Shown here: piece after piece, positions 417 through 60,536 of the stretch
How the letters are laid out: every line of letters starts with the position of its first letter
How positions within the stretch are numbered: the first letter of the stretch is position 1
Origin: Gammaproteobacteria bacterium
GTDB taxonomy: Bacteria > Pseudomonadota > Gammaproteobacteria > GCA-001735895
Assembly (NCBI GenBank): GCA_024225395.1
Contig: JAAEMR010000044.1
Coordinates: 8,132 to 72,131 of the forward strand
Length of the DNA stretch: 64,000 nt
Reading direction: 5' to 3'
The notes under the pieces: model-generated
Databases searched by the model: none
Told to the model about the DNA's origin: nothing
What the model saw: only the letters and a program-made list of their open reading frames with translations
Position numbers and translations under genes: made by a program

Positions 417-1805
417 ATGATGAAAATAGGCGTTATACCCCTTGGTCGTCCCACTTTTGACGTAGAGCTGGCTGAAAAAAAGCTGGCGCAAATGTTAAAG
501 AAATTAGCAGAAAGCGGAAATGAAATTATCGGCTCGGATACCCTTTTGTTTGATGAGCCTGGCACCCAACAGGCGATGACTGAGTTACAAAGTCAATCGG
601 TTGATCAAATACTGATACTGCAAGTTACTTTTACAGACGCTTCGATGGCGGTTGCTGCAGCATCGAAATTTGATCAACCTTTATCTATTTGGGCTATACC
701 TGAACCGCGCTTGGGAGGACGGTTGAGACTCAACGCTTTTTGTGGACTTAATTTGTTTAGTCACGCACTGAGCCTTTGTGACAAAACTTTTTCCTGGTTG
801 TATGCAGATCCCGATGAAGATGTTGAATCAGACTTAACGGCTCTTTTATCCGAGCAGCGATTATCAGAGCATTTACAGCCAATCTCCGCTGAAAAGTTTT
901 TCTCAGAAGCGGGTCAAAAAGTAACTGAGTCTATCAGTGGGCGTCGTATCGCGCGCATTGGAGAACATCCGACGGGTTTTGACTCTTGTGCTTATTCGGA
1001 AGAACAAATCACAAAACTGGCGGGTGTGACGGTTGACGCTTTGAAACTTGATGAGCTTTTTAGTGCTGCCAGTTCGGCATCCACACAAGAAACCGCGGTT
1101 GTACGTAAACTGGCGGAATCATCACTTTCAGATTTAGATGAAGTAAATCAAAAAGAGCTGGATCATTCTTTAAGGTTAAAAGTAGGTCTGGATAACATTC
1201 GAACAAAAGGCAACTACGATGCTTTTGCTATTCGATGTTGGCCAGAGACATTTACAGAGTATGGTGGAGCGGTCTGCGGCCCTGCATCCATGATGGGTGA
1301 AGCAAAGGTACCTTGCGCCTGTGAAGCTGATGTTTATGGTTCATTGAGTCAACTCATATTGCAGGAGGCTTCAGGGGAAGCCGTCTTTTTGACTGATTTG
1401 GTTGATATGGACAAAACGGATAATACCGGTGTTTTTTGGCACTGTGGTCAGGCACCAGTATCGATGCGTGCGCCAGAAGTAAATGCGACAGCTACTATTC
1501 ATACTAACCGAAAAATGCCACTTCTTTATGAATTTTCACTCAAAGCGGGGCCTGTGACTATGGTGCGTATATCACAATCCTTTAACCAGCCAAAAATGAT
1601 TTTAAGCTATGGTGAAATATTGAGTAGGCCTATGTCATTTACCGGAACATCCGGAGTGGTTCGCTTCGAACGTGATACGGGCAGTGTGCTGGAGGATATT
1701 ATCAATTCGGGACTGGAGCATCACATGGCGCTTGCTTATGGAGATCATCGTGAAGTACTACGCAGCGTGGCTGCGGCGATGAAACTACCGTTACTGGAGT
1801 TATAA
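417..1805 (+). CDS. Sugar isomerase of the L-arabinose/L-fucose isomerase (AraA/FucI) family
   Basis: 462 aa. The motif VPCACEADVYGSL resembles the metal-binding core of AraA/FucI-family isomerases (AVCEADV...). The reading frame sits tightly within the operon. Confidence 0.55.
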   Translation: MMKIGVIPLGRPTFDVELAEKKLAQMLKKLAESGNEIIGSDTLLFDEPGTQQAMTELQSQSVDQILILQVTFTDASMAVAAASKFDQPLSIWAIPEPRLGGRLRLNAFCGLNLFSHALSLCDKTFSWLYADPDEDVESDLTALLSEQRLSEHLQPISAEKFFSEAGQKVTESISGRRIARIGEHPTGFDSCAYSEEQITKLAGVTVDALKLDELFSAASSASTQETAVVRKLAESSLSDLDEVNQKELDHSLRLKVGLDNIRTKGNYDAFAIRCWPETFTEYGGAVCGPASMMGEAKVPCACEADVYGSLSQLILQEASGEAVFLTDLVDMDKTDNTGVFWHCGQAPVSMRAPEVNATATIHTNRKMPLLYEFSLKAGPVTMVRISQSFNQPKMILSYGEILSRPMSFTGTSGVVRFERDTGSVLEDIINSGLEHHMALAYGDHREVLRSVAAAMKLPLLEL

Positions 1806-2828
1806 ATGAATATTACTGCTTTTGGGAAAATGCCTGATGGCAGCGTGGTTGACTGTATCTCGCTCAGTGCAGGATCACTTACCGCAAAGATTCTAACTTA
1901 TGGTTCGGTTTTACAAGACCTGCGACTGGATGGGCATAGTCCATCACTGGTGTTAGGGTTTGATTCCTTAGAGCATTACCTCGATCATTCCCCTTACTTT
2001 GGAGCTACTGCAGGCCGCTGCGCTAATCGCATAGGACATGGACACTTGCTGCTTGAAGGTGTGGAATATCAATTGGATCAAAACTTTCTTCAACGACACC
2101 ACCTCCATGGCGGTGCCATGGGTATTGGAAAAAGGTTATGGAAGATTGAAAAAGCAAACACTGAACGGGTTACTTTATCGATTAAATTAGCCGATGGTGA
2201 AATGGGTTACCCTGGCAATATGGACGTAGAGGTGACGTATCGGTTATTGCCAGCAGGAGTGTTAGATATTTGTTTCGAGGCTACCACGGATAAAACGACG
2301 CTGTGCAATTTAGCCCATCATAGTTATTTTAATCTTAGCGGACGAGATTCTATTCTTGATCACAGGCTGCGAGTAGAAGCCGCTAGCTTTACTCCTGTTG
2401 ATGATGAATTGATTCCTACAGGAGAGGTGAGGTCGGTAACTGGTAGCATTTTTGATTTACGTCAGTTTAAAGATGTAGGGTCGATAGTCCATAAACAGGG
2501 AATTGATCATAACTTTTGTCTGTCTGATCAACGTCAATCACTGCGTTCAGTCGCTTTCCTGGAAAGTCCAAGCTCAGCTGTGAGTATGACAGTTCGCACC
2601 ACCGAACCGGGATTACAAATCTATGATGGTGCGCGCGTAGCTCCACCAGTACCTGGCCTTGATGGTTTGCATATGAAAGCCTATGCAGGTATCGCACTGG
2701 AACCACAGATATGGCCAGATGCGATTCACCACAGTCATTTTCCACAAGCTGTTTTACATTCTGATGAGGTATATAAACAGCGCACTCAATATATTTTTAG
2801 CAATAAAACTGGGGGTTTGTCATCATGA
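1806..2828 (+). CDS. Aldose 1-epimerase (mutarotase) family protein
   Basis: 340 aa. The N-terminal region ...DGSVVDCISLSAGSLTAKILTYGSVLQDLRL is typical of galactose mutarotase-like proteins. Its start codon directly abuts the upstream stop codon. Confidence 0.7.
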   Translation: MNITAFGKMPDGSVVDCISLSAGSLTAKILTYGSVLQDLRLDGHSPSLVLGFDSLEHYLDHSPYFGATAGRCANRIGHGHLLLEGVEYQLDQNFLQRHHLHGGAMGIGKRLWKIEKANTERVTLSIKLADGEMGYPGNMDVEVTYRLLPAGVLDICFEATTDKTTLCNLAHHSYFNLSGRDSILDHRLRVEAASFTPVDDELIPTGEVRSVTGSIFDLRQFKDVGSIVHKQGIDHNFCLSDQRQSLRSVAFLESPSSAVSMTVRTTEPGLQIYDGARVAPPVPGLDGLHMKAYAGIALEPQIWPDAIHHSHFPQAVLHSDEVYKQRTQYIFSNKTGGLSS

Positions 2829-3916
2829 TTCGTTATGGCTTAATTGGTTCCGGGATGATGGGGCAGGAACACATTCGAAATATAAAACTGCTGGAAGATG
2901 CAGAGGTAGTAGCTATTGCTGACCCAGATCAGGAGATGCGTGATCTTTCTTTCAAAACCAGTAACGGTACGGCGAAGTTATATAGTGATTACAAGCGGAT
3001 GCTGGATGATGACATATGCGATGTGTATGTGATTGTCGCTCCTAATGACACGCATCATCAAATACTTCTCGATACTATACCGGCTAACAAACCTATTTTG
3101 TGTGAAAAACCGCTTTGTACAACCGTAGAACATTGCAGGGAGGTAATCGCTCTGGCAGAGGATTACGCTACAGTGGTTTGGGTTGCCATGGAATATCGAT
3201 ACATGCCACCCGTGCAACGATTATTATCCGAGGTCGATAAAGGCACTACTGGTAGTTTGCAAATGATGAATATTCGCGAACACCGGTTTCCTTTTTTGAC
3301 CAAGGTGGGAGACTGGAACCGCTTTAACAAAAGAACCGGGGGTACGCTCACCGAAAAATGTTGTCACTTCTGGGATTTGATGCGTTTAACATTAAACAGC
3401 GATCCGATTCGGGTGTACGCGTCAGGTGCAATGGATGTTAACCACATTGATGAGCGTTATGATGGGAAAGTACCGGATATAATTGATAATGCTTTTGTCA
3501 CGGTTGACTTTGAAAATGGTAGCAGGGCTATGCTGGATCTTTGTATGTTTTCAGAGGGTTCCTATTGGCAGGAACAGATATCGGTGACCGGTCCCAAAGC
3601 TCGTGTAGATGCCTATATTCCCGGGCCTGCGCGTTTCAGCACAGATGGAAAAGAGCGACATGCTCAATTGAGTATATCTGATCGTAAAAGCAAAACCGAG
3701 ACTAGAGTAGATGTGATAGTTGATGAGACAATTTTACAGGCAGGTGACCATCACGGGTCGTCATTTTATCAACATCAAAAATTTCTGGATATGGTACAAA
3801 GTGGCAGTTCAACGCCAGAGGTTAGTTTGATCGATGGCTTATGGTCAGTGTGCGTAGGGGAAGCAGCTGAACGCTCTGCACGAACCGGGCAGGTCGTGCA
3901 GCTTGATCGGGTTTAA
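2825..3916 (+). CDS. Gfo/Idh/MocA-family NAD(P)-dependent oxidoreductase
   Basis: The N-terminal Rossmann motif GLIGSGMMGQEHIRNI and the EKPL motif are present. It shares a 4-bp ATGA overlap with the upstream gene. Confidence 0.75.
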   Translation: MIRYGLIGSGMMGQEHIRNIKLLEDAEVVAIADPDQEMRDLSFKTSNGTAKLYSDYKRMLDDDICDVYVIVAPNDTHHQILLDTIPANKPILCEKPLCTTVEHCREVIALAEDYATVVWVAMEYRYMPPVQRLLSEVDKGTTGSLQMMNIREHRFPFLTKVGDWNRFNKRTGGTLTEKCCHFWDLMRLTLNSDPIRVYASGAMDVNHIDERYDGKVPDIIDNAFVTVDFENGSRAMLDLCMFSEGSYWQEQISVTGPKARVDAYIPGPARFSTDGKERHAQLSISDRKSKTETRVDVIVDETILQAGDHHGSSFYQHQKFLDMVQSGSSTPEVSLIDGLWSVCVGEAAERSARTGQVVQLDRV

Positions 3917-3943
3917 CCCGGGTTAAACTCGAATTTTACAGCT

Positions 3944-4807
3944 TTATTTGTTTGCGACTACCTTGAATGAGGAAGAAAAATCTTCTGCGCCAAAACCTTT
4001 TTCCATGCCCTGGTCATAAACCTCGACCACTCTGTCTATAGTTGGTAATTCTAACCCGGCTTCTTGCGCCATTTGTTGAGCAATATGAACATCTTTGTGC
4101 ATGTTTTGCAGGCTAAAAGCAGCCGGATATTCATTTTTGTCAATATTAGGCCATTTAGCGTTGAGGTAAAAATTTCCAGCTCCACCATAAGAAATTGCTT
4201 CAACAAACTGGTCAGTTTTTATACCTTGATGGTGTGCCATGGTAATCATTTCGTTAACACCGTTCTGGATTTCTCCAACCAGCATGTTATGGCAAATTTT
4301 CATCACCAGACCTGAGCCATTATCGCCAAGATGTATGACGTTATTTCCCATACAAAGAAGTATGTCCTTCACCGTTTCATCAAAAACCGATTTGTTACCA
4401 CCAGCATAAATGCCAAGTGTTCCGTCTATTGCTGCGGGCTGAGATTTTACAACCGGGCAGTCGAGCATTGTTGCTCCTTTGCTTTCGACTTGTTTGGAAA
4501 TTTCTATAGATGCTGATGGTTCAATAGTGCTCATATCAATGGTTATCTTTCCAGCGGTAAGAGCAGGTAATAATTCTGAATACACAGCGCGGACATCCTT
4601 GCTGGCAGTGACCATGGTGATGATAACATCTGCTTTTTCACCAACTTCCTTGATCGAAGAAGCACTCTTTGCTCCGGCTTTGACCATTGTCTCAGCTACT
4701 GCTGGTTTTCGTGCAAATACCAGTACCGTGTCTTCTTTACGTTTGTTGACTAAATTCATTGCCATAGGAGTACCCATGGTGCCTAAACCGATAAATCCTA
4801 TAATCAC
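3944..4807 (-). CDS. NAD-binding beta-hydroxyacid dehydrogenase (3-hydroxyisobutyrate dehydrogenase / tartronate-semialdehyde or sulfolactaldehyde reductase family)
   Basis: IGFIGLGTMGTPMAMNL dinucleotide-binding motif plus the central catalytic Lys region (GSGLVMKICHNM). Length 287 aa. Confidence 0.8.
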   Translation of the reverse strand: MIIGFIGLGTMGTPMAMNLVNKRKEDTVLVFARKPAVAETMVKAGAKSASSIKEVGEKADVIITMVTASKDVRAVYSELLPALTAGKITIDMSTIEPSASIEISKQVESKGATMLDCPVVKSQPAAIDGTLGIYAGGNKSVFDETVKDILLCMGNNVIHLGDNGSGLVMKICHNMLVGEIQNGVNEMITMAHHQGIKTDQFVEAISYGGAGNFYLNAKWPNIDKNEYPAAFSLQNMHKDVHIAQQMAQEAGLELPTIDRVVEVYDQGMEKGFGAEDFSSSFKVVANK

Positions 4808-5100
4808 TCTTCACCTCTCATCGATGTTTATTTATGTTGAAGATGTACTTTTTAGTGCAAAATTAGTCTCCGAGTAATGGCTTTTATGCACCATAATTGG
4901 ACCAATTATAAAAATAAATATTATACTCAAATTGTTAAAATATTTATAGTATTATATAAGACTAGTTGACTATTGTTGAGTTAGGGAAATAGTCTTATCT
5001 TAAAGCTTGTCTTCGGCTATAAGGTGTCAACTAGCATTCAAATTAGAACCTTGGAAAGGGTACTGACAAATTAACTGTCTTTTCGCGATAATTTACAGAT

Positions 5101-5340
5101 GACGAATTCCCTCCTGAAATCATCCAATATGCAGTGTGGCTTTACTATCGATTTAATCTCAGTCATCCGGATATTAAAGGTCTATTAGCTCATCGCGGAA
5201 TCATTGTCAGTCGAGAATCCATTCGGTTATGGTGTAATAAGTTTGGATCTAAATATGCGACCAGATTGCGTAAGAAGCATCAGGGATATGGCGACACTTT
5301 TTTATTTTCGACAGCTTCGTCAAATAAATGGCCAGCCTGA
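5101..5340 (+). pseudogene. IS6-family transposase remnant (N-terminal portion only, no start codon, truncated 3')
   Basis: EFPPEIIQYAVWLYYRFNLSHPDIKGLLAHRGIIVSRESIRLWCNKFG...LRKKHQGYGDTF follows the conserved N-terminal pattern of IS6 (IS26/IS257-like) transposases. The frame then decays and is overlapped by the neighbouring gene's 3' end. Confidence 0.5.
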
Positions 5341-5362
5341 TACAAGGTGCCTTTCCCACTCT

Positions 5363-7828
5363 TTAATGTTGCTGAATAATGACCTGGTCGCTGCCATTAC
5401 AAGATATCATTACATGACTGCCGCTACCATCGGTAAAATGTGCATTGGTAGGGGAGTCACATCCCGTTAAAGATATGACTGTACTATTTGTGATGCTGGC
5501 ATCGGCATCGATACTCGTAACAGTGTAGTTGTTCTCGTTAAAACCAGTAGTGAGTGCCAATACTCCATCTCCATCGGGATCGGGGATGAGGTCAATATCA
5601 AGTGGACTTCCTCCCACATCAGCTGTGTTATGGATCACAGGCGTTACCTCTGGATTTGCCCAGCTTATGGTAGAAATGGTGTTGTCTCCAAAGTTTGATG
5701 TCACGCACACTCCACGTAGGCAGCGTAGTCGCCATGGATACATCCCGACCGAACCCAGATTTTGATCAGTATTGTCAATGTGCTCTTCTCTTGGATCAAA
5801 CAACCATAATGAGCCGTTAGTTTCTTCACCATTCTCAACAAGTACCAGTGCAGGTCCATCGAAACCACCAACAACGCTGACAACATCACCACTTTGTCGC
5901 CATTCGCCACTGGTTCGTATAAAACCTGCAGGTCGCCTCCAATCCGTTACCTCGCTATCCCAGCCAAGAAAGCTGACTGAATCACTGCCATTGTCTACCA
6001 CCAGATATCCGGTGTCGCGACCATTTATATCGACGGGCCCCGGGACAATGTCGGTAACACGACTGTTAGGGTAAGGGTGAAACTGGGACATTCCCCATTC
6101 GCCAGAATCCGAATTATATGAGGTTTCACTGTAACCGCCGCTGCCGGTATAGAATACCATCCATTCTGCTGTATCTCGATCAGACTCAGGAGCTACCAGG
6201 AATACACCACCCAGATACGGGTATAAACCTGCGGGCATCGACAGGCGTTCCACTTCGGTGCCATCGTGTAAATCCCAAACTCCAATTTGATCAGCACCTG
6301 ATACAAGGGCATAGTCACGGTCTGCAGGAAGATCCAGAACATCCAAAGACTGGTGTCTTATAGGTGATTCATCTGCAAAGGGATCGCCTGCAGACCAGTA
6401 ATTATCACGCACATTAAGTCCGATATAACCTACGTATGTTTCTGGTGCAGTCAGCTGGAATGAGTCTATCCAGCCAATACTCTCAGGGTCCTTGCAGCTT
6501 ACATGGACAGTGAGTAAATCTTTAGCCATGTAGAAACCTTCATCCTTTGGAAATACCCTTAGCTCAAATCCAATAGTCGTATCACCAGCTTTTAAACATT
6601 TATAACTAAGGTTTTGGGTATTAGCGCCTATTACAGGATTTTGGATCTCTATGGCATCATATTTCTTATTGGGAAACAGAGTGATCATTTCCGCTCCAGC
6701 ACTGGTAGCAGGATTGCCTAATTCTGTTTTCGATACAATGCCTGGATTACTGTCCAGGATCCAGATTTCGTATTCATTAGTGTTGTCTAATGCAATTTCA
6801 GTAATGGCAATTTTGAATGACTCCTCTAGTGTCTTAGTTACTTTGCTGGGGGCGAGTAAAAAACTTGTTGCGGGTCCGGATCCATAAGGAGAGATTATTG
6901 AAGTGGCCCCTGAATTGCTATCAGGCCCTATACAGATAATCCATTTGTCTTGTCGCTTAGTTACTATATTGGATAGTTTAAAGCCTTTAACTAACTTGAA
7001 AGTGCCATCTGAATACATGTCTTCATAGCCAACACTGAAGTGTGGTTTAGCCAGGCCTGGTCTTAAGCATTCCAGTTTCACTGTTCCCGATAATACTGAG
7101 GCTTGGCTTGCAACCAATGAGCCCATATCTATGGGCATTTCTTCCAAAATTGCTAATGGATCTGCTAAATCCACAGATCCATAAAATGCTATTCGCTCAG
7201 CACTGATATCGGATTCAGCAGAATGAGTAACCATGGCATTAACATTAAACTTCTGACCAACCTGTGCGACACCAGGGATTCCAGTTATTTTAAATCGATC
7301 ATAAAGACCTAATACTACGGCTATAGTGGAGAAATGACTCAGTTCACCACTTAAGCTGGTGATCCCAGTATTCTGATCTATTGATAATGTTACATTATCC
7401 AATAGCTCAATAATGCTATTGGATGAGGTGAGTATCGCCGCAATCGCACTACCTGCATCGTCATCTTCAAGTATTGACAACTCAATTGGAATACTAATTG
7501 TAATTGGCTTTTCCAGGGTTAAACCAGAAGGCCCCAGTTCATACGCAAAAATTGTATCAATACCTTCAAATTCTTCGGGAAAATCAACAGGATTTAGTTT
7601 AGTGACGCTGATATCAACTGTCTCAGTTAATGCATCTGCCGGTATCTGAAGACTAAGCAGTCCATCCGCGGAAGAAATAGCTCCCCCTTCAGCACCGACT
7701 GTAACGATGACGGGAGTATCCGTGTTTATGTTATCGTTATTGCTTCCACCACCACAGGCAGCTAAAACGATAGAAAAAGATAAAATGATAATTAAACGGA
7801 AGGCCTTAATTAAGTAAAGAACACCCAT
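5363..7828 (-). CDS. Large predicted lipoprotein (821 aa), surface or secreted, function unknown
   Basis: Signal peptide with a lipobox (…SIVLAAC GGGSNND). Ser/Thr/Gly/Asp-rich beta-type composition. Confidence 0.6.
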   Translation of the reverse strand: MGVLYLIKAFRLIIILSFSIVLAACGGGSNNDNINTDTPVIVTVGAEGGAISSADGLLSLQIPADALTETVDISVTKLNPVDFPEEFEGIDTIFAYELGPSGLTLEKPITISIPIELSILEDDDAGSAIAAILTSSNSIIELLDNVTLSIDQNTGITSLSGELSHFSTIAVVLGLYDRFKITGIPGVAQVGQKFNVNAMVTHSAESDISAERIAFYGSVDLADPLAILEEMPIDMGSLVASQASVLSGTVKLECLRPGLAKPHFSVGYEDMYSDGTFKLVKGFKLSNIVTKRQDKWIICIGPDSNSGATSIISPYGSGPATSFLLAPSKVTKTLEESFKIAITEIALDNTNEYEIWILDSNPGIVSKTELGNPATSAGAEMITLFPNKKYDAIEIQNPVIGANTQNLSYKCLKAGDTTIGFELRVFPKDEGFYMAKDLLTVHVSCKDPESIGWIDSFQLTAPETYVGYIGLNVRDNYWSAGDPFADESPIRHQSLDVLDLPADRDYALVSGADQIGVWDLHDGTEVERLSMPAGLYPYLGGVFLVAPESDRDTAEWMVFYTGSGGYSETSYNSDSGEWGMSQFHPYPNSRVTDIVPGPVDINGRDTGYLVVDNGSDSVSFLGWDSEVTDWRRPAGFIRTSGEWRQSGDVVSVVGGFDGPALVLVENGEETNGSLWLFDPREEHIDNTDQNLGSVGMYPWRLRCLRGVCVTSNFGDNTISTISWANPEVTPVIHNTADVGGSPLDIDLIPDPDGDGVLALTTGFNENNYTVTSIDADASITNSTVISLTGCDSPTNAHFTDGSGSHVMISCNGSDQVIIQQH

Positions 7829-7990
7829 GATGTTTAACCTCTATTTATTTAAAGGCTACTCTCACCATGAATCAAAAACAATTCAAGATGGATATAGAAT
7901 TGACCTGTATCAAAGGCTATAAATGGACCATTGCGGGTATCGAGGTTGTCACACAGAATTGACCGGTTCACGCCCTGAGTCATTCACCTT

Positions 7991-8217
7991 GGTCAGATAA
8001 ATGGCCGGTGACTGGAATAGAACTGGCTGATACTCTGGAAAAAAAGAGCAAATATATCTTTTGAAAAATAAACCGGGAAGTGTCAGGTTTTTAAACTTTC
8101 TGGTTTCCCCATACCGGACAAAGTAGACAACAGGATCTTCGGTTTACAGCTAGGTCAGAGAGATTAATAATGCTTTCCATTGGTCTTAAAAATGAACAAA
8201 GGAGTCGTTCCAGTCGG
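7991..8217 (+). repeat. Interspersed non-coding repeat, copy A (about 225-nt family)
   Basis: Shares the GGTCAGA(C/T)AAA…CTGGAAT…GGGAAGTGTCAGGTTT…CCATACCGGAC…TTCGGTTTA…ATGAACAAAGGAGTCGTTCC core with copies at about 13006, 15326, 19951 and 60361. Confidence 0.6.
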
Positions 8218-8231
8218 TGCACTAGAGAACT

Positions 8232-9494
8232 TTATTTTAACTTATGGTGCCAGATATTATTCAGGTTTAGACTCTGTTCTTTTCGAGGAATAACAACAAT
8301 TCCGCTCCTCGTTACGTGATAAAGTTGCTTGTCTTTTTCCTGATCATAACCTATTACGGTGTTTGCAGGAATTTTGACGTGTTTATCGATGATGGCTCGC
8401 CGAATTTTACATCCTCGACCTATCTCTACTTTATCAAATAATATTGAATCGCTGATGTCGCAATAGCTATTAACCTTAATATTTCGCCCTAGCACGCTGT
8501 CGTAAACTTTGCTGCCGCTTAGGATAGTTCCCTCGGAGATAATGGAATCCACTGCCATGCCTCTGCGACCATCGTCATTAAAGGCAAATTTTACCGGAGG
8601 AGAGCTTAGTTCAGCAGTTCTTAGCGGCCACTGATCATTATAAAGATTAAAATTTGGTGAAATACTTTTTAAATCCATGTTTGCTTCGAAGAAATCATCG
8701 ATGTCTCCAACATCTTTCCAGTAGTCTCTTTCCTCCTGAGTAACCGACCCCGGTACTCTGTTCAGGCCGAAATCATAAGCGAAAACTTTCATCCTGTGGC
8801 ATATATCAGGCAGTATCGTTCTCCCGAAATCATGATCAGTATTCATTACCGCATCACTCTTGAGTTCTTCTAGCAGTACCTCAGTATTAAAAATGTAGTT
8901 TCCCATCGATACCAGACATTTACCAGGATCGTTCGGTATAGTAACAGGCACTTTAGGTTTTTCGTAAAACTGCTTTACCTTCCAGTCCTCATCAATCTCG
9001 AGGCAACCGAATTTATACGATTCTTCCTTGTCGATGCACAAAGCTGATACAGTTGCATCGGCATTTTTCTTTTCATGGAAGGTGATCATCTGGCTCACAT
9101 CCATACGGTAAATATGATCCGCTCCGAATATCGCAACATAGTCTGGCATGGCTCTTTCTATGAGGTGGATATTCTGGTAGATAGAGTCAGCGGTCCCTTT
9201 GTACCAACTTTCACCAACTCTCATTTGTGCAGGAACAAGAGTAATAAACTGATTTCTAAGCAGCGAGCCGAATTGCCAGCCATTTTCAAGATGCTCTACC
9301 AGTGACTGAGATTTAAACTGCGTGAGTACGTAAATCGAACAGATGCCGGAATTGACTAGATTGCTAAGGATAAAATCAATTATCCGGTATTTTCCACCAA
9401 AAGGAACTGCCGGTTTCGCCCTGTCCTTAGTCAGTGGATAGAGCCTGGTTCCTTTTCCACCGGCCATGATTAATGCTAATACACTTTTTTTCAT
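8232..9494 (-). CDS. glgC: Glucose-1-phosphate adenylyltransferase
   Basis: 420 aa. N-terminus LALIMAGGKGTRLYPLTKDRAKPAVPFGGKYRIIDFILSN and the overall length match GlgC. Confidence 0.9.
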   Translation of the reverse strand: MKKSVLALIMAGGKGTRLYPLTKDRAKPAVPFGGKYRIIDFILSNLVNSGICSIYVLTQFKSQSLVEHLENGWQFGSLLRNQFITLVPAQMRVGESWYKGTADSIYQNIHLIERAMPDYVAIFGADHIYRMDVSQMITFHEKKNADATVSALCIDKEESYKFGCLEIDEDWKVKQFYEKPKVPVTIPNDPGKCLVSMGNYIFNTEVLLEELKSDAVMNTDHDFGRTILPDICHRMKVFAYDFGLNRVPGSVTQEERDYWKDVGDIDDFFEANMDLKSISPNFNLYNDQWPLRTAELSSPPVKFAFNDDGRRGMAVDSIISEGTILSGSKVYDSVLGRNIKVNSYCDISDSILFDKVEIGRGCKIRRAIIDKHVKIPANTVIGYDQEKDKQLYHVTRSGIVVIPRKEQSLNLNNIWHHKLK

Positions 9495-9905
9495 CCTGCC
9501 TCCCGAAATTCACGTTCTTCAAAAACTTGTCAAAACGGAAATGACATTTAGTAATAATATCAGTCATGCAAAATAGTCTAATTAGGATACTAGCATAATC
9601 GAGTATTACACATACAACAAAGCTGGCATATCCGGTTTTTCTGTATATTGAGAAGCCCCTTTACAAGCTATTGAGGTGAAAACTGATATTACCGAACATT
9701 TGTGGGTTTTATTATTTAAGATATAGCTAGAAAAATTAAATGTTCACAAATATGAAATTTAATTCTCAAGTAGTGAATTATTCTGGTGGATCGATTCTGA
9801 GATACAAGGCTGCTTCTTGTTTGATTGTAGCCATCATAGTGGTGAAAAAGAAAACTAGTAGTTTAACCTGTAAAATTGCACAAAAAGTTCATATGTTTGA
9901 CTCCA

Positions 9906-9960
9906 GAATGGACAAACCGGCCGTATATGCCAGCACCAAAACCGGCTCTTCACGACCGAC
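9906..9960 (+). repeat. 3'-end fragment of the interspersed repeat family
   Basis: GAATGGACAAACCGGCCGTATATGCCAGCACCAAAACCGGCTCTTCACGACC matches the 3' terminus seen at 60478-60536. Confidence 0.4.
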
Positions 9961-10306: not shown

Positions 10307-12784
10307 TCAATAGAGATAAACCGCTCCAGCACTTTTTGCCGAATCATTACTCTGGTCACCATTGACCCCAATACTGTCGCTGCTTTCCCAGCGTGCACCG
10401 ACTGCCAGTTTCTCACCATCATCACTTAGGGTGACACTGATTCCAAAATAATCGTCATTTCCGGTATTACTCGCTTTTACGTATGCCTGCTGGCTCCAGG
10501 TAATACCGCTACGAGTAAATACATACGCGGCGCCTGTCTGGTAGCCGGTATTATTCTGGTTACCATTTAGACCTATGGCATCGCTGTCTTCATTAGCTGA
10601 ACCTGTAGCGAGGATATTACCATCGCTACTCAGCGCAATACTGCCACCAAAATAATCTCGTTCATCGGTATTGCTGGCCTTGATGTAAGCCTGTTGCTCC
10701 CAGCCAGCATCGGTATCAATAAACAGATAAACAGACCCTGAATATATAGCATCATTATTGAACTGCTCACCATCTATACCCGTGGCATTGCTGGCTTCTT
10801 TTGAGCCTACGGCAAGCGTTTTCCCATCACCACTGATAGCTAGATTACCGCCAAACATATCACTTGCTTCTGCATTGCTTGCCTTGAAATAGGTTTGCTG
10901 ACTCCAGGCGGAGCCGCTGTAGTTAAACAGGTAGGCTGCACCTGCTCCTGAGGCTGTATTATCTGCCTGATTACCATCAATTCCGGTTGCAATGCTATCC
11001 TCGCTTGCTGCACCCACGATAAGGGTATTGGCGTCATCACTCAGATCGATACTTCCTCCAAACGAGTCCCCTGCATCAGTATTGCTCGCCTTGATATAGG
11101 CCTGCTGGCCCCAGGCCGAGCCATCGTAATTAAACAGGTAGACTGCACCGGCACTTGTGGCTGTATTATCTGTCTGATTACCATTAATACCGGTGCTGGC
11201 ACTATCTTCTTTCGGAGCACCCACGGCCAGGATCGTACCGTCATTACTCAGTGCAATGCTATAACCAAACCATTCATCTGGATCAGTGTTGCTCGCTTTC
11301 ACATAGGCCTGCTGGTACCAGTTACCTGCGCTATATTCAAACACATAGGCTGCACCGGAATTTAGATGAGCGAAATCATCACCATTATTTGGATAGTCAT
11401 CGACACCGGTGCCATTACTGTCTTCATAGGGAGCACCCACGGCCAGAATGTTGCCGTCGTAGCTAAGTGCGACCTTAAGGCCAAACTGATCCTCTGCACC
11501 GGCATTATTTGCCTTGACGTATCCTCTTGGTATCCAGGTGCTTCCGCGCTTGAAGATGTACACTGCTCCCGCTGATTCCTCCACGTTGAAATTGGGTGCT
11601 TGGTCACTGTCTTCACCCGGCGCCCCCACAGCCAGGGTTCTACCGTCACCACTTAATGCAACACTACTAAAACCATCACCAGCTTGGGTATTAATGGCCT
11701 TAAGGTATCCAATCGCTTCGATCATCACTGGGACGATGCTTTCTGGTGCTGAAGATGCAAGTAAAACCCCACCTGCACCATAGGCCTCGACCATGTAGCT
11801 TGCATTGACCCAGTCAGCCAGGTGCACCGAGACCTCATCCCATGAAGAAAAATTCTCTGCACCGAAATCATAGAAATTAGTCAAAAGCTGGGTATAACCC
11901 GACGCACCATCTGGATTGACAAAAAGCTTGTAATAGACCGTGCCCTCATAATCAGACCAGTCAAACCACACTCTATTGACGTATGAGGTATCTTCTGGTT
12001 TGACGACATTAAGTTCAAGAACATCATTAACCGTTACTGTGACAAGTTGCGTGGCGAGATAAGCGCCGTCAGTCGCACCGACCTGAACCTGGTAGACGTT
12101 ATCCTGATCACCATCAAATGGCGATTCGTAATCGGGTATAGTGATGAAGCTTAACCCACCGCTGGCGCCATCAATGGTAAAATCGGCACCATCATAGCTA
12201 TTCAAGATTGTGAATATAACGTTGTCCGATTGGGGATCGGTTGCACTTATTGTGGCCACCGCTACATTATTTTCCTGAACAGAAAAATCGCTTCCTGAGG
12301 TAAACTGGGGCGCTTCGTTACCACCAACAATACCGCACATATACTCAGTAGTGGTGATCTCGCTGATATCGAGCAATCCATCGTTATCAAGATCCAGCCC
12401 GGCATCAATCTGCAGACCGTCAACGATACAATTAGCCCCGGCAGGTTCGTCACTGACTGAAACCAGTGCAGTATTACCATCAGCACCATCAGTACCATCA
12501 GCACCGTTGCACACCTTCTCAGCGCTATCGACTTCACCGTCGTCGAGCACGCCATTGCCGTTTTCATCGATGCCGGCCTCTACAAGGATGCCACCATAAG
12601 GACAGTCGATATCGTCAGCTGCCAATACAGTGGTGCGGGCGGCTGACGATAAATCGCCGCTTTCGGAGACTGGGCTATCATCGTCATTACCAGCGCTTCC
12701 ACTGCAAGCGGAAAGAAATATTAACGAGATAAATAAAACGAACTTAAAGAATTCTTCAGGGGAGTTTGAGTTTGAGCTGTCCAT
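10307..12784 (-). CDS. Surface lipoprotein with a cadherin-like domain and tandem FG-GAP-type (integrin-alpha-like) repeats
   Basis: Signal peptide plus lipobox (LSAC). Cadherin-like segment (VQENNVAVATISATDP…VTVTVNDV). Seven or more roughly 60-aa repeats of the type FG.S..LS.DG.TLAVGAP.EDS…G.NG.Q.DN….GA.Y.F. Paralogous to the C-terminal half of the 39899..45955 product. Confidence 0.7.
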   Translation of the reverse strand: MDSSNSNSPEEFFKFVLFISLIFLSACSGSAGNDDDSPVSESGDLSSAARTTVLAADDIDCPYGGILVEAGIDENGNGVLDDGEVDSAEKVCNGADGTDGADGNTALVSVSDEPAGANCIVDGLQIDAGLDLDNDGLLDISEITTTEYMCGIVGGNEAPQFTSGSDFSVQENNVAVATISATDPQSDNVIFTILNSYDGADFTIDGASGGLSFITIPDYESPFDGDQDNVYQVQVGATDGAYLATQLVTVTVNDVLELNVVKPEDTSYVNRVWFDWSDYEGTVYYKLFVNPDGASGYTQLLTNFYDFGAENFSSWDEVSVHLADWVNASYMVEAYGAGGVLLASSAPESIVPVMIEAIGYLKAINTQAGDGFSSVALSGDGRTLAVGAPGEDSDQAPNFNVEESAGAVYIFKRGSTWIPRGYVKANNAGAEDQFGLKVALSYDGNILAVGAPYEDSNGTGVDDYPNNGDDFAHLNSGAAYVFEYSAGNWYQQAYVKASNTDPDEWFGYSIALSNDGTILAVGAPKEDSASTGINGNQTDNTATSAGAVYLFNYDGSAWGQQAYIKASNTDAGDSFGGSIDLSDDANTLIVGAASEDSIATGIDGNQADNTASGAGAAYLFNYSGSAWSQQTYFKASNAEASDMFGGNLAISGDGKTLAVGSKEASNATGIDGEQFNNDAIYSGSVYLFIDTDAGWEQQAYIKASNTDERDYFGGSIALSSDGNILATGSANEDSDAIGLNGNQNNTGYQTGAAYVFTRSGITWSQQAYVKASNTGNDDYFGISVTLSDDGEKLAVGARWESSDSIGVNGDQSNDSAKSAGAVYLY

Positions 12785-13005
12785 CTTTCCACACCTATTG
12801 ATTCCAATTAACTCAATCTTAATTTGAGCAGATATTAAAAAGGTTAATACTGATTGAGGTCATGTTTGGGGGAGATTCAATCTTTAAAGAATTTAAAATT
12901 AGATGAAAGGTACTTACGGCTCTAAACTTATGTAGAAATATACTGTAAAAGATAATAATTATTTTACCAGTATCTTCCCATGGCACGTTGTACTCATGTC
13001 CGATC

Positions 13006-13225
13006 GGTCAGACAAATGACCGGTAACCTGGAATAGAATTGGATAATAACCTGGGGAAATCTGAGTAAATAAATCTTTTGTAAAGTTAAGCAGGAAGTGT
13101 CAGGTTTCAAACGTCCAGATTTCCCTATACCTGTCATAGGAAGCAATAGGGTCTTCGGTTTAAAAGCTCAATCAGCGAATCATTCCACATTTTCTGTTAG
13201 TCTCAACCATGGACTTAGCTGACAT
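13006..13225 (+). repeat. Interspersed non-coding repeat, copy B
   Basis: Same conserved core and orientation as copy A. Lies between a minus-strand adhesin gene start and a plus-strand secreted-protein gene. Confidence 0.6.
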
Positions 13226-13380
13226 AGAAAGTTTTCAATAAAATAGCTTAACCAAGTAACTAATCTACCACATTCTGGATTGTGATTCTCTGGTTGATAT
13301 TGGCGAACAGGCCTTTTTACCTATTGATAAGCTCCTTCTTCGGTTAGAATGTTTTTTTTTAAAACTAATGGAATGAACCA

Positions 13381-14266: not shown

Positions 14267-15046
14267 GTGGACAAAAGTTACTGGACAGCTGATCTGAAAG
14301 GCCCTCTTGATGTTGGTGTATTTTTTCCAGGCTATCGGGAATATACGTTGATAGAGCAGATATCATTAGAAAGCCCATCACCATCAGCCTGTGGTGATTA
14401 CGCTGTTTTTATTGAAGACAGTTGCCAGAATTTTTTAATCCCTGAACTGGTGCAACAGGCTGATATCGATCGTATCAATGGAGAGGCATTGAATTCAATG
14501 ACAATTTGTCCTGCTACCAAACAGGAGACGGGGGGACGGTTTGTTTATATTCCTGAAGACAGAAATAATGGTAATTATATCAGCTGTGAATATCAGGGTA
14601 ATGAGATTGGCTCCCTGATGGCTTACCAGGTGCCTTACCTGAATTACAATTTTACAGATGGAGTAAAAATTTCCTATGATGTAAATGGGAATTTTTTTGC
14701 AGTTACTGAAAGAAATTCAACCGATACCACAAGCACATCGCTGTTTTATGAGCCTGATGGATTTATAAAGCAGGTCTATTACAGCTCAGAGGTAGAGAAT
14801 ATTTATCTGACCATGTTTTTTACACCGGATGATTTATGGGGCAGCACCTGGAGTTATAGCTTTAACCAGGGTGTAACTGGTGTAGACCATCATGGTCAGT
14901 GGGTTAATTTTAATGACAAGGAGGTTTTATCAGTATTGTTATTTGGAATATCCAATACTATGGAAAAAGACATGAGATTTGAAGCGGGCGTAATGACCCA
15001 GTGCACACTACGCAATGGCAATGAAATACTGGGTAGTTGTATGTAA
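14267..15046 (+). CDS. Hypothetical protein (GTG start in the ORF track), Cys-containing, possibly secreted
   Basis: ORF of 259 aa with coding-like composition. No recognisable family. Confidence 0.35.
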   Translation: MDKSYWTADLKGPLDVGVFFPGYREYTLIEQISLESPSPSACGDYAVFIEDSCQNFLIPELVQQADIDRINGEALNSMTICPATKQETGGRFVYIPEDRNNGNYISCEYQGNEIGSLMAYQVPYLNYNFTDGVKISYDVNGNFFAVTERNSTDTTSTSLFYEPDGFIKQVYYSSEVENIYLTMFFTPDDLWGSTWSYSFNQGVTGVDHHGQWVNFNDKEVLSVLLFGISNTMEKDMRFEAGVMTQCTLRNGNEILGSCM

Positions 15047-15091
15047 GGATTTACTCCTGACCAAAATAGCGCAATGTAATAAAGCATTGCT

Positions 15092-15118: not shown

Positions 15119-15325
15119 AAAACCTTACCTTTAGACGAGTGGCTTTTCATCTAGCAGTTGAATTATTGTATATGATATGGGATATCGAACAGGTTCACAT
15201 ACAAAATAGAATATCATTTTGGAAGTAACTGGGATCATAGAATTTAATATATAGAAAGTTCAAACTCCATAAAAAAAGGAAAATTTTCTACGGCTGGTTT
15301 CTCCACTTTGTAAGTATTCACTATT

Positions 15326-15546
15326 GGTCAGACAAACGACAGGTGCCTGGAATCGAAGTAGATTGTATTCTGGAAAAATAAGAGCTAAAACCTTTTGAAG
15401 AATTAACCTGGAAGTGTCAGGTTTAAGCTTCCTGAATTCTCCATACCGGACGTAGGAGGCCATAGCACATTCGGTTTAAAGTTAAACCACAGAAATAGTC
15501 AACTATAACCATCAGGCTTAATCATGGACTAATGAGTCATTCAGGT
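15326..15546 (+). repeat. Interspersed non-coding repeat, copy C
   Basis: GGTCAGACAAACGACAGGTGCCTGGAAT…CCTGGAAGTGTCAGGTTTAAGCTTCCTGAATTCTCCATACCGGACGTAGGAGGC…TTCGGTTTAAAG…ATGGACTAATGAGTC. Lies about 290 nt upstream of the PKD-protein gene. Confidence 0.6.
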
Positions 15547-15836
15547 ATTGGTTTAAACACTAAATTTCTGATATTCCTGTTCGACATTGACACCTAAACT
15601 GATGGGCAAGGTGCTGGGTATCGTTTACCGCTCGAATGCATCCCACCTCATCAAAAAAGCAGGGCTGACTCAAAAAATGCCAAAATCCAGTGCGACAACG
15701 AACTTGATACCCGCAATACCCGTTTGAACAGCTGTCCAATACCATTGGATTTAAGGAAATGTATCGTTTATTCTTCTTTTACTTTACGTACATGCCCTCT
15801 TGATTTGTTCCATGATATTGTGAGAATGCTAAAACC

Positions 15837-19705: not shown

Positions 19706-19942
19706 ATGGACATGCCAAAAGATGCCAAGATTGAGATTATTATTGATTCCTCGCTGCTGAAACATTTCACAGAGAATCTGAATAGGCTGAATTCCGGCAA
19801 AACGCCGGAAGATGTTATTGCTGGGGTCATTACGACCATCCTTGACGGCTCGTCCTTTCCGCTGAAGGTAAAGCGGACAGGAGAGCAGACCATCCACATA
19901 GGCTATCACTTCCGTTCCTTTTCCCAACCGTTTTTTGAGTAA
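19706..19942 (+). CDS. Small hypothetical protein (78 aa)
   Basis: ATG start with coding-like composition. No confident family assignment. Confidence 0.3.
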   Translation: MDMPKDAKIEIIIDSSLLKHFTENLNRLNSGKTPEDVIAGVITTILDGSSFPLKVKRTGEQTIHIGYHFRSFSQPFFE

Positions 19943-19950
19943 TCACAATT

Positions 19951-20174
19951 GGTCAGACAAACGACCGGTGCCTGGAATCAAAGTGGATGATAATCTGGAA
20001 AAATCCGAGCTTACAACTATTTGAAAAATTTAACTGGAAGTGCCAGGTTTCAACTTCCTGAATTCTCCAAACTGGACGTAGGTGGCGGTAGGCTTTCGGT
20101 TAGCAATTAAGCCAAAGAGATTATTAATAATTTCACTTAGTCTTAAAGATGGACGAAGCGGTCGTTCATGAAGG
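19951..20174 (+). repeat. Interspersed non-coding repeat, copy D
   Basis: GGTCAGACAAACGACCGGTGCCTGGAAT…ACTGGAAGTGCCAGGTTTCAACTTCCTGAATTCTCCAAACTGGACGTAGGTGGC…TTTCGGTTAG…ATGGACGAAGCGGTCGTTCATG. Confidence 0.6.
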
Positions 20175-20622: not shown

Positions 20623-21384
20623 TTGCAGTGGAAGCGTAACCCCTGCTATCAGGCTTTTTGTGGGCTCACGGAGTACCAACCCAGACCGCCCTGTCACAGT
20701 ACCGAACTGGTGCATTTTAGAAAACGCATTGGTAAAGTCGGTATCGAACAGATATTCCAGATGAGTGTACGCCTGCATGGCCGTCTGGCGCAGGAAGATA
20801 CGGTTAATATTGATACCACGGTTCAGGAAAAGAACATCACCTATCCGACGGATGCCAGGCTTGCCATCAAGACCATTAACCACAAGTGTATTGCATCGGT
20901 AAGGGCAAAGATCATAAGCAGTATGAGTATGGCAATAAAGTATCCATCTCCTGTAGTGCAAAAAAGTAACCTGATTGTCGGTGTCGTCAGCCATGAGCTG
21001 AACCTGCATGATATTCATACTCTGCCAGAGGTGTTAAAACACATCGAAGAGTCGAGAGGAAAAGCGGTTAAGACTGCCGTCTGTGATCGAGGCTATCGGG
21101 GTAAAAAGGAAGTCAATGGAACACGTATCATGCTACCGGCAAAAGGGCTGAAAAGAGACAATCGATATCAGCGAGATAAAAAAAGAAAGCAGTGTAAAAG
21201 GCGAGCAGCCATCGAGCCGATCATTGGTCATTTAAAATCAGACTTTCGGCTCTCCAGAAACTTTTTAAAAGGTGTTACAGGTGATGAAATTAATTTGCTG
21301 ATGGCAGCCACTGCCTGGAATCTAAAAAAATGGCTAATCGCCTTTTTTGGGCTGTCATTATTACCCGGAAAAATCTATTTTTAA
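20623..21384 (+). CDS. IS5-family DDE transposase, catalytic part (orfB)
   Basis: Continues orfA in a different frame. DDE_Tnp_1-type features are present (…DTTVQEKNITYPTDARL…AVCDRGYRGK…). The split suggests either a programmed frameshift as in the IS427 group or an inactivating frameshift. Confidence 0.75.
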   Translation: MQWKRNPCYQAFCGLTEYQPRPPCHSTELVHFRKRIGKVGIEQIFQMSVRLHGRLAQEDTVNIDTTVQEKNITYPTDARLAIKTINHKCIASVRAKIISSMSMAIKYPSPVVQKSNLIVGVVSHELNLHDIHTLPEVLKHIEESRGKAVKTAVCDRGYRGKKEVNGTRIMLPAKGLKRDNRYQRDKKRKQCKRRAAIEPIIGHLKSDFRLSRNFLKGVTGDEINLLMAATAWNLKKWLIAFFGLSLLPGKIYF

Positions 21385-36553: not shown

Positions 36554-36569
36554 TCAGGGAGGATAAAAA

Positions 36570-51274: not shown

Positions 51275-51405
51275 GTTGGCTTCCTTAATTCCTGGTTTCT
51301 CCATACCTGTCAAAGGAAGAGCTAAGGCCTTCTGATTACAGTTTAAACACCGAATATGTCAACAATTACTGTCAGGCTTAATCATGGAAGTAGCTGCCAT
51401 TGCTG
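51275..51405 (+). repeat. Partial copy (3' half) of the interspersed repeat family
   Basis: …CTGGTTTCTCCATACCTGTCAAAGGAAG…GTTTAAACACCGAAT…TCAGGCTTAATCATGGAAGTAGC parallels the 3' half of copy C, including TCAGGCTTAATCATGGACTAATGAG. Confidence 0.4.
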
Positions 51406-51608
51406 TTTATCCATATATGACCAGTTTTGGTATTCAGGCTTTAGATGCTCGAAATCTTGTAAAACGAGATCGCTTTTCCAGCACTGGACATTTAAAGAGA
51501 ACCCAAAGGTCTCAACCTGGTACTTCATACGAAACATTTCAGAATTGAATCTGCATTGTGTGCTGCTGGCACTCATACACCAGAATCGATATTCTCCCTG
51601 TAAAGACT

Positions 51609-59797: not shown

Positions 59798-60085
59798 TTG
59801 AACGAGTTATTCAACCCGGTTGCCGTAATGTGTGGCGATGCTGGGTATGGGCTTGCTATGCTATGCCGCTATGCGAACCAGTTTCGATTACTGCTCTCCA
59901 GTCTGGGTTATATCCTGCTGGAAAGTATCCGTCGCCTGGCTTTGAAAGGGACTGAGCTGGAAAATCCACAAGCCGGTGCGCTCAGGTTAAAGTTGTTAAA
60001 AATTGGTACGGTTATTTTACATAATACCCGTCGAATACGTTTCCTGTTATCCAGTCATTACCCTTATCGGATTTATTCAGATCGG
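59798..60085 (+). pseudogene. C-terminal fragment of an IS4/IS1380-superfamily DDE transposase (remnant)
   Basis: …ANQFRLLLSSLGYILLESIRRLALKGTELENPQAGALRLKLLKIGTVILHNTRRIRFLLSSHYPY resembles the conserved C-terminus of IS1380-type transposases. There is no upstream catalytic domain, and the ORF then reads through non-homologous sequence. Confidence 0.45.
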
Positions 60086-60360
60086 TGGCGGCCAGATTGC
60101 AATCGGGATAAGGGAAAAGAGTGCTGTCCCGGCACGCTGAAAAATAATGGGGAAGGGGATGTTGCGCCTGGAATCTGTCAAAAGAGCTCAACAGCGATTT
60201 CAGATGCAAAAAAAATGAATCAGATGGCTGCTCTCTTTGCCATGAGCAAAATGCTGACTACCTATGAAACATTCAGGCTAGAAAGTACAGTCCGATATCT
60301 TGGTATAGAAGTAGATGATGCTCTGGAAATATCTGAGTTAACTGATAGTTGATGCAATTA

Positions 60361-60536
60361 ACCAGGAAGTGCAAATCTGGTACTTCCTGACTTCTCCATA
60401 CCGGACGTAGGGGGAGGGGAGTAATAAGTTTTGGCTAACTCCTGTAACGTCACCTGAATTTTCGATTAGTCGCTGAAATGGACAAACCGGTCGTACCTGC
60501 CAACATTGAAACAGGCTCTTCACGACCCTTCCGATC
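60361..60536 (+). repeat. Interspersed non-coding repeat, copy E (lacks the 5' part of about 50 nt)
   Basis: …CAGGAAGTGCAAATCTGGTACTTCCTGACTTCTCCATACCGGACGTAGGGGGAGG…GAAATGGACAAACCGGTCGTACCTGCC…GGCTCTTCACGACC. Confidence 0.55.

Follow-up and report, generated by a model that had tools for sequence, protein, structure and literature searches.

Which kind of genetic object is the repeated segment at positions 15326-15546 of the 64,000-nucleotide stretch analysed here (hereafter the window), taken from contig JAAEMR010000044.1 of the gammaproteobacterial assembly GCA_024225395.1? An earlier reading of its letters (the original prediction) had described a multi-copy unit with complementary terminal 9-mers and a conserved internal hairpin, compatible with either a closed RNA fold or a miniature inverted-repeat transposable element (MITE). 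The results presented below favor a reading to which we assign a probability of roughly 0.6, namely that the copies are internally deleted, non-autonomous derivatives of a tyrosine recombinase unit, which would have multiplied after the deletion and moved in trans.

A co-oriented family of intergenic repeats

The repeat family is genuine and far above chance expectation, with seven copies or fragments in the window, all of them on the + strand, according to BLAST, profile and position weight matrix (PWM) searches. Four of these sites are near-full copies, two are fragments, and one is a copy that remains joined to a gene relic (Table 1). The claim that the segment is multi-copy is borne out by a BLAST search of 15326-15546 against the window, which returns five other + strand matches, the best of them at 19932-20168 (77% identity, E-value 6e-46) and the remainder at 7982-8210, 13003-13164, 60301-60414 and 51289-51388; a profile of the 3' half adds the weaker fragment at 9859-9960. 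A PWM for the conserved 3' box identifies exactly seven sites, all in + orientation and with nothing comparable elsewhere in the window, and a degenerate 28-nt pattern for the 5' region yields four window matches against zero expected. The true unit is longer than first proposed, extending approximately from 15287 to 15546 (~260 nt). All the window copies are intergenic, and their orientation is independent of the direction of neighbouring genes. Strict co-orientation is observed in the window (7/7) and in two related contigs from other assemblies, here designated by L numbers (3/3 in L004 and 2/2 in L014), and the strand concerned is the G-rich one in these contigs.

Pairwise identity among copies ranges from 50 to 87%, the pseudogene part described below (70-87%) being better conserved than the interior of the adjoining B module (50-80%). 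The degenerate 5' pattern also reveals copies in at least two contigs of uncultured gammaproteobacterial metagenome-assembled genomes and in at least seven metagenome contigs, and the related copies reduce to at least five distinct loci (L003, L004, L005, L007 and L008). Profile searches of these loci uncover further copies, several of them with only the 3' half (B, ~125 nt). The copy under study is nearer to those of L008, L005 and L007 than to most window copies, and its nearest relatives belong to other assemblies, as does L008 (A part 87% identical, B part 77%). Viral contigs and annotated plasmid and phage records contained no DNA matching the unit. Coding capacity is likewise not apparent: the open reading frames (ORFs) that start at the conserved ATG span only 2-36 amino acids (aa) and the copies present no 3-periodicity of the kind expected from codons. 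A small protein initiated at the nearly invariant ATGGAC was rejected on these grounds, the frames also varying between copies.

The parent recombinase locus

The origin of the repeat is suggested by L003, in which the start of one copy falls within the final 25 codons of a 208-aa ORF, the copy then running for ~170 nt beyond the stop. The encoded protein matches the Pfam Phage_integrase family (PF00589, 7e-19) at residues 42-192, corresponding to the catalytic domain only, and matches Xer-type and DNA-invertase models weakly (NCBIfam). Its nearest solved structures in a PDB search are XerC-like, XerH and XerD proteins, and the catalytic C-terminal residues HxxR...H...Y are all present, in the sequence ..HSMRR..LLGH..TVRY... 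Full units at such loci are ~0.9-1.1 kb long and comprise one gene, encoding the 208-aa tyrosine recombinase, together with its conserved 5' flank (U) and a conserved 3' flank that consists of a stem-loop, followed by module B and sometimes by a short module C. The ~150 nt of U, upstream of the gene, are common to L003, L015 and L012. In ten intact loci a stem of 11-14 bp lies 10-40 nt after the recombinase stop (z -2.3 to -7), and its sequence differs widely between recombinase lineages.

The window itself retains the stump of a full recombinase unit at 60275-60530. Positions 60275-60352 still hold, in frame, the last 24 recombinase codons (RLESTVRYLGIEVDDALEISELTD, then stop), and the resulting peptide is identical to the C-terminus of the L003 recombinase at 23 of 24 positions (96%, BLASTP). 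The stem-loop (60362-60390), B and C (60514-60527) follow in the same order as in the intact loci, and the DNA is 89.5% identical to that of L003 over 143 nt. A split integrase of the SSV type, with attP within the gene, was considered and discarded, no N-terminal recombinase fragments being present anywhere in the window.

The recombinase family is very large and carries generic annotation only: all of the at least 8000 candidates scored fall at E<=1e-10, and the best-scoring members are all ~208 aa long and 73-96% identical. Members are found on plasmids of Methylomonas, Pseudomonas, Cupriavidus and Paraburkholderia, and the complete replicon Caballeronia pSBC2-1 carries the family at four places (tblastn). 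The function of the family is not stated in any of the sources that we reached. Full-length units (L015, L016, L020 and L021) come from two Joint Genome Institute (JGI) samples that also hold contigs 99% identical to the window, and the tetranucleotide composition of L015 is window-like (r 0.93); a trans-acting recombinase partner in the same organism is therefore plausible. In the lineage formed by L012, L013, L020 and L021, whose recombinase is 87-90% identical to that of L003, an ORF of ~560 aa with no Pfam match lies ~240-350 nt downstream (L012 10976-12652, L013 2260-3936, L020 1181-2863 and L021 1494-2522, the latter cut to 343 aa by the contig end), and it may be a fixed partner of the recombinase or a gene under its control.

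Two classes of internal deletion

Comparison with the full units separates the gene-less copies into two classes. The first (Delta1) comprises nine copies with one and the same junction, four in the window and five in other assemblies (L003a, L004a, L005, L007 and L008). Aligned with the full units L003 and L015, every Delta1 copy is colinear with recombinase nt +575 to ~+760 (E 1e-8 to 1e-30), a stretch spanning the codons GIEVDDALE.SELT, now frameshifted or stopped, the stem-loop and B. The ~60 nt to its left constitute the left end (LE; ...TGGCACTTTGTA.G.ATTCACTATTGGTCAGACAAACGACCGG), which is joined at CCGG to ..T(A)TCTTGGAATAGAAG by the catalytic-tyrosine codon; the sequence 3' of the junction is that found after GTCCGG/TAT, the active-site arginine-tyrosine codons. 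In the copy under study (R3), the colinearity with int nt +575 onward and the 3' flank of L003 (E 9e-30), seen also with L015, begins at ~15342 and takes in the last ~60 nt of the gene, the stem-loop and ~125 nt of 3' flank (B), with the deletion junction located in the ACAGGT box that closes LE. R3 is thus of Delta1 type, made up of a left end, the pseudo 3' end of the recombinase gene, a stem-loop relic and a B module in which a conserved 5' box (TTCTCCATACCGGAC) and a conserved 3' box (ATGGACTAATGAGTCATTCAGG) enclose ~75 variable nt. Sister copies yield tblastn matches to GIEVDD.LE.SELT. Of the stem-loop, only the outer 5 bp (GGAAG/CTTCC) remain in Delta1 copies, and the hairpin of the original prediction (CTGGAAGTGTCAGGTTTAAGCTTCCTG, found at 15408-15434 exactly as quoted) is this stem-loop of the recombinase gene, in eroded form.

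In the second class (Delta2), U is fused directly to B, at the same point in L014 (~14700-15050, copy L014b) and in L004 (~4395-4740, copy L004b). In L014b, a match to positions -138 to -22 of the int 5' flank (E 7e-16) is followed by one to the 3' flank that starts at +658 (E 7e-7). The parent carries no gene other than the recombinase, and what both classes alike retain is the flanks of that gene. Delta1 and Delta2 are hence internal deletions of one kind of locus. Since each class presents a single junction at unrelated loci in different assemblies, the gutted units multiplied after deletion, instead of being deleted independently; the flanks of the copies bear no similarity to one another. 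LE is common to all nine Delta1 copies and to the Delta2 copy L004b (35/44 identity), and L015 carries GAGAAACGACCGG in U at the place equivalent to LE. Through L004b, we infer a full-length parent with exactly these ends.

A tRNA-like target upstream of Delta2 copies (GTTCGATTCC in L014) was set aside because no T-arm could be discerned by eye and the string corresponds to a diverged int 5' flank. A promoter of sigma-54 type at TGGCAC(N)GC in the left end, judged by eye on the alignment, was also dismissed, being present in some copies only and with inconsistent spacing, and a scan for sigma-70 promoters and terminators returned nothing inside the unit.

Table 1. Copies and fragments of the repeat in the window, followed by the parts of copy R3 (HMM, hidden Markov model; PWM, position weight matrix)
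Feature	Position	Strand	Basis or remark
Copy R1 (Delta1)	7956..8215	+	nhmmer E 1.9e-74
Fragment: 3' part of B + C module (ATGGACAAACCGGCCGT...GGCTCTTCACGACC)	9859..9960	+	B HMM E 0.0025; PWM 26.0; C motif
Copy R2 (Delta1)	12977..13246	+	nhmmer E 1e-73; deleted in L031-L034
Copy R3 (Delta1), element under study	15287..15546	+	nhmmer 15296-15562, E 9e-76
Copy R4 (Delta1)	19923..20170	+	nhmmer E 5e-76
B-only copy between Fur-family and deacetylase genes	51288..51410	+	B HMM E 1e-24; in all strain contigs
Full-unit relic with recombinase 3' end, stem-loop, B and C	60275..60530	+	BLASTP, DNA comparison
R3: left end (LE), TCTACGGCTGGTTTCTCCACTTTGTAAGTATTCACTATTGGTCAGACAAACGACAGGT	15287..15344	+	ends in ACCGGT-type box, here ACAGGT
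R3: frameshifted non-coding recombinase 3' remnant (..GIEVDCILEK, stop)	15345..15392	+	aligns with CTTGGAATAGAAGTAGATGATGCTCTGGAAATATCTGAG of intact genes
R3: originally predicted hairpin, the eroded stem-loop after the recombinase stop	15408..15434	+	comparison with intact loci
R3: B module	15437..15546	+	B HMM match 15426-15540, E 4.5e-28; 3'-box PWM 22.8

Terminal complementarity and RNA structure

The complementary terminal 9-mers reported for 15326-15546 are absent from that copy, which reads ACGACAGGT at its 5' end and ATGAGTCAT at its 3' end. The ends quoted were a composite of two other copies: the 5' string (GACAAACGACCGGTGCC) lies at 19956-19972 in R4, with its 9-mer ACGACCGGT found only at 19961-19969, and the 3' string (GACAAACCGGTCGTACC) lies at 60481-60497 in the relic copy, with its 9-mer ACCGGTCGT found only at 60486-60494. 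No window copy contains both exact 9-mers, the best case being the copy at 19932, with eight of nine complementary positions. The GC-rich block CCATACCGGACGTAGGAGGC, in turn, is present at 15441-15460 exactly as quoted.

The RNA structure proposals were evaluated on an alignment of 11 copies, of which the window supplied five and other contigs six. The long-range closing helix is paired in 59.6% of cells, with a covariation of 0.096 against a shuffle mean of 0.097 and with 250 of 500 shuffles reaching values as high, which speaks against it. For the GGAAG/CTTCC stem, pairing reaches 94% of cells, but not one double (compensatory) change accompanies it. As to the proposed concentration of variation in loops, the copies bear it out only insofar as conserved blocks alternate with variable stretches. 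RNAalifold predicts no terminal helix over the 272 columns of the alignment (-3.2 kcal/mol), contrary to a closed fold, and the minimum free energy of the 221-nt segment lies close to that of shuffled sequences (z -1.0 on the + strand and -0.7 on the - strand). No Rfam match was obtained at gathering scores or at E<=1, and no tRNA, tmRNA or member of known RNA families was found. We conclude that the element acts as DNA and not as a structured RNA.

Element ends and proposed mechanism

Boxes centred on ACCGGT recur in the flanks, both in LE (AAACGACCGGT) and at the two ends of B (B5', CCATACCGGWCA; B3', GACAAACCGGTCGT). The LE and B3' boxes are the origin of the complementary 9-mers discussed above, the 5' one lying within the LE box, and the complementarity of the ends around ACCGGT amounts to 8-9 nt and is found in some copies only. 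The same two boxes can also be read as direct repeats, GACAAAC..CCGGT, with a 2-nt offset, at both ends of the unit. Extended terminal inverted repeats (TIRs) pairing a far-left box (GAATTGACCGGTT) with the right end are suggestive in three to four copies and were rejected as inconsistent overall. Recurrent flanking direct duplications, the other mark of a MITE sought here, are not observed at copy ends, which are not placeable to the base. Solo B3' cores (ATGGACAAACC.GTC.T) are found at L003 4427-4447, L007 144-164 and L014 8584-8604, in the same orientation as nearby copies; in L007 a C-like motif comes next. These cores may represent attachment sites on their own.

In the 87%-identical lineage represented by L012, the equivalent positions carry another shared motif, which includes a perfect 13-nt inverted pair at -143/+106 (p ~0.002; GCTAATTTGCCCA and TGGGCAAATTAGC, at ~9858-9870 and 10733-10745) flanking the recombinase gene. 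L017 presents a perfect 12-nt pair in the same arrangement (ATAGTGCTCCAG and CTGGAGCACTAT, at ~9774-9785 and 10861-10872). We read these pairs as putative lineage-specific recombinase sites, and the fact that they differ between lineages suggests a self-contained invertible or mobile unit of ~0.9-1.1 kb.

Taken together with the deletion classes, these boxes allow a mechanism to be proposed. The intact recombinase would act on the ACCGGT-centred boxes retained at both ends and would thereby move or recombine Delta1 and Delta2 units in trans, these being non-autonomous carriers of recombinase sites. Integration would be oriented, which would account for the uniform direction of the copies. In a bolder form of this proposal, which we regard as doubtful, the ~1-kb unit would be a minimal autonomous element, similar to an insertion sequence (IS) and run by a lone tyrosine recombinase, with Delta1 and Delta2 as its fixed-orientation, MITE-like passengers.

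Strain contigs and neighbouring genes

Contigs 99% identical to the window occur in six JGI samples and carry the same copies, with the exception of four contigs (L031-L034, from four JGI samples) that lack ~11657-13246 of the window (1.6 kb). The missing segment contains copy R2 and the first ~376 codons (1.1 kb) of the neighbouring FG-GAP/cadherin gene at 10307-12784 (-), and the contigs join at a CTTAA microhomology whose right endpoint lies ~38 nt after the ATGGAC box of R2. Strain contigs also differ at a 207-nt tandem repeat within the same gene (10860-11315, 2.2 copies, 75% match), and a 9/21/30-nt tandem repeat at 49705-49922, inside the ZrgA-family zinc-uptake gene at 49506-50288 (-), varies in length between the window and L027-L030, in which the alignment breaks at 49768-49862. 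At the deacetylase locus, relatives with an 84-90% identical protein present no copy within 10 kb, and their gene order differs too.

Two copies have IS remains beside them. An ORF matching DDE_Tnp_1/DUF772, a transposase relic at 20623-21384, lies directly 3' of R4, and a C-terminal fragment of an IS1380-family transposase (~59870-60065) lies immediately 5' of the 60275-60530 relic. Farther along the window, three consecutive giant ORFs of 2194, 1110 and 2018 aa occupy the + strand of 29969-45955 and look like giant adhesin-type proteins, the last of them with Calx-beta, Cadherin-like and FG-GAP domains listed. In L014, the recombinase unit adjoins two blocks (6911-8056 and 1191-5917) that hold a RelE/MqsA toxin-antitoxin system, a second integrase of 381 aa and a satellite-phage-like block with a PriCT_2 primase, an AAA protein, a capsid protein and a small terminase; this locus is a hotspot for several kinds of mobile DNA. 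At L014 19400-19440, a sequence similar to the left part of U (GGCAACGACCGGTAACGCCACACAGCAGTTATTCAC), close to the AACGACCGGATTCGCCACAACCGGGTAGTTCATC of L015, may start another unit.

Discussion

Several observations weigh against the interpretation of the copies as derivatives mobilized in trans. Neither consistent TIRs nor target duplications were found, and local alignments between left flanks and right ends are inconsistent and low-scoring. The strict co-orientation of copies in the window and in L004 is unlike the random insertion of MITEs. The comparison of strain contigs caught no transposition or integration event, and the absence of R2 from L031-L034 is a deletion, not an excision. 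Because the copies differ by 15-50%, any activity must be old. The window contains no intact recombinase gene, and none of the full-length recombinase genes fetched is preceded by the first ~45 nt of LE. Finally, the locus queried in Caballeronia pSBC2-1 has no near-identical second copy in that replicon, its family members not behaving as IS-like copies.

Much of the same evidence can be arranged differently. Rather than having ever moved as small elements, the copies might be attachment (att) sites left by serial site-specific integration, that is, by tandem accretion, with the DNA between them as acquired cargo. We consider this possible. It would be in keeping with the co-orientation of copies, with the direct orientation of GACAAAC..CCGGT at both ends, with the solo B3'-type cores of L003, L007 and L014, and with the accessory-looking, adhesin-like character of the inter-copy genes (PKD, FG-GAP/cadherin), and both accretion and cis-mobilizable elements (CIMEs) are concepts already described (PMC5704250). 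The order of modules also fits: L014 reads int, stem-loop and B, 4.7 kb of unrelated genes, and U-B-C; L003 reads int-B, 1.6 kb and B; and the window at 7956-9960 reads Delta1 copy, one gene and B-C fragment. Where cargo follows B, as in L014, C comes after the next downstream B, and where there is no cargo segment, as in the L015 unit and the relic at 60275, C comes directly after B. Accretion is harder to reconcile with the 13-20 kb array, which is not headed by a recombinase gene and in which every boundary consists of a complete Delta1 unit carrying one identical internal deletion instead of a simple att core. Moreover, the copies at 51288 and 60275 stand isolated among housekeeping-type operons, a pristine attB, in which the left end would be joined to C, was not found, and no cargo segment was seen in two contexts. 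An unlikely alternative dispenses with any role for the recombinase and with any element-like behaviour, and takes the copies as inert debris of several recombinase loci, duplicated or reshuffled by homologous recombination, IS activity and segmental duplication. The age and divergence of the copies, the IS relics beside two of them and the fact that the sole strain-level polymorphism seen is an ordinary microhomology deletion are congruent with it. Nevertheless, the recurrence of a single junction within each class, at nine unrelated loci for Delta1 and at two for Delta2 and in several genomes, requires the spread of an already deleted unit, the flanks of copies share no similarity, the copies are co-oriented, and the higher conservation of the pseudogene part with respect to the B interior argues for constraint.

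The two readings that rest on folding are far less credible. A structured non-coding RNA family, be it a small RNA or a cis-regulatory leader closed by a long-range helix, is very improbable: the conserved blocks between variable stretches, the well-paired GGAAG/CTTCC stem and the intergenic location of all copies are what such a family would present, but the fold energies, the shuffle-like covariation of the terminal helix and the lack of Rfam matches and of promoter or terminator signals all run counter to it, as do the independence of copy orientation from neighbouring genes and the fact that the 5' third of the unit is decayed coding sequence. Extremely improbable, in our judgement, is that B is an integron-type attC, a site folded as single-stranded DNA, and the region an array resembling a cluster of attC sites lacking an integron integrase (CALIN). 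The likeness lies in co-oriented, site-like repeats of ~120 nt with conserved ends and a variable centre, separating segments of one to a few genes, in the linked tyrosine recombinase and in an imperfect inverted pair that brackets B (TTCTCCAT...ATGGACAA). This reading fails on the type of integrase, since the 208-aa recombinase scores 26.5 bits with the integron integrase model TIGR02249 against a cut-off of 265 bits and is not of IntI type, and on the lack of single-stranded folding, since the folds of ten B modules on both strands are not above shuffles (z -2.4 to +1.4, mostly ~0). In addition, R''/L''/L'/R' boxes are missing, ATGGAC is nearly invariant (15/17 aligned copies) and changes in its partner break the pairing without compensating it, the segments are larger (2-5 kb) and carry genes in both directions, and a fragment of the recombinase gene is part of the repeat.

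With derivatives mobilized in trans as the preferred reading, the family can be set against known systems. Bacterial MITEs of the Correia/ERIC type and those derived from IS are also short (~260 nt here), non-coding, intergenic and multi-copy, and arise likewise by internal deletion of a longer gene-bearing unit, with both flanks kept and a junction common to many copies. The MITE alternative of the original prediction hence survives in this part: the copies are short, non-coding, multi-copy internal-deletion derivatives and a longer gene-bearing unit does exist in related contigs. The family differs in that the parent is a tyrosine recombinase locus and not a DDE or HUH transposon, that no consistent TIRs or target site duplications were found, and that the copies are strictly co-oriented. 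As regards shared ends, the right-hand ~215 nt and U match the parent, and the first ~45 nt of LE were found in no full-length unit. To our knowledge, no family in ISfinder or otherwise catalogued among bacterial IS uses a tyrosine recombinase, and we know of no bacterial miniature repeat family with a tyrosine recombinase unit as its parent; the literature consulted contained no relevant description of a tyrosine-recombinase MITE or mini-element.

CIMEs and the tandem accretion of integrative elements of the ICESt1/ICESt3 family have been reviewed (PMC5704250). CIMEs have lost their integrase and kept their recombination ends, form co-oriented tandem arrays and need a related integrase, whether in cis or in trans. 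Delta1 and Delta2 similarly retain sequences of the 5' and 3' flanks without the gene. On the other hand, CIMEs are kilobases long, with short identical att cores and a single conserved target at a gene or tRNA 3' end, whereas the unit described here is ~260 nt long, holds a piece of the recombinase gene and is found at scattered intergenic sites in addition to an array, with no single target or pristine attB identified. The REPIN-RAYT system offers another parallel, in that the gene of a DNA-processing enzyme is flanked by sequences that are also present as many short non-autonomous copies. RAYTs are, however, HUH enzymes similar to those of IS200/IS605, and REPINs are palindromic doublets with strong hairpins, while the enzyme here belongs to the tyrosine recombinases and the copies show no folding. 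In the same vein, the inverted pairs of L012 and L017 bring to mind hin/hix of Salmonella, a ~1-kb unit with the recombinase gene between inverted repeats; yet Hin belongs to the serine recombinases, dispersed deletion derivatives are not accounted for by inversion, and the inverted repeats seen here are not position-conserved across lineages.

The family is therefore MITE-like in its logic, with a tyrosine recombinase unit as its parent, and a speculative RNA motif is replaced by a recombinase gene and by short DNA units bearing the sites that it presumably uses. By having continued to multiply, the deletion derivatives mark the flanks that matter (the LE box, B5' and B3') and so provide a handle on the substrates of the recombinase. 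If the unit were indeed an element run by a lone recombinase, it would represent a mode of transposition or integration without counterpart among the catalogued bacterial IS families, with thousands of unannotated recombinase members on plasmids and chromosomes and with an insertion that is possibly strand-specific. If the copies are mobilized in trans, they would constitute a MITE-like family driven by a tyrosine recombinase; if they are instead scars of accretion, they would mark a hotspot at which an uncultured gammaproteobacterium captures adhesin-like genes.

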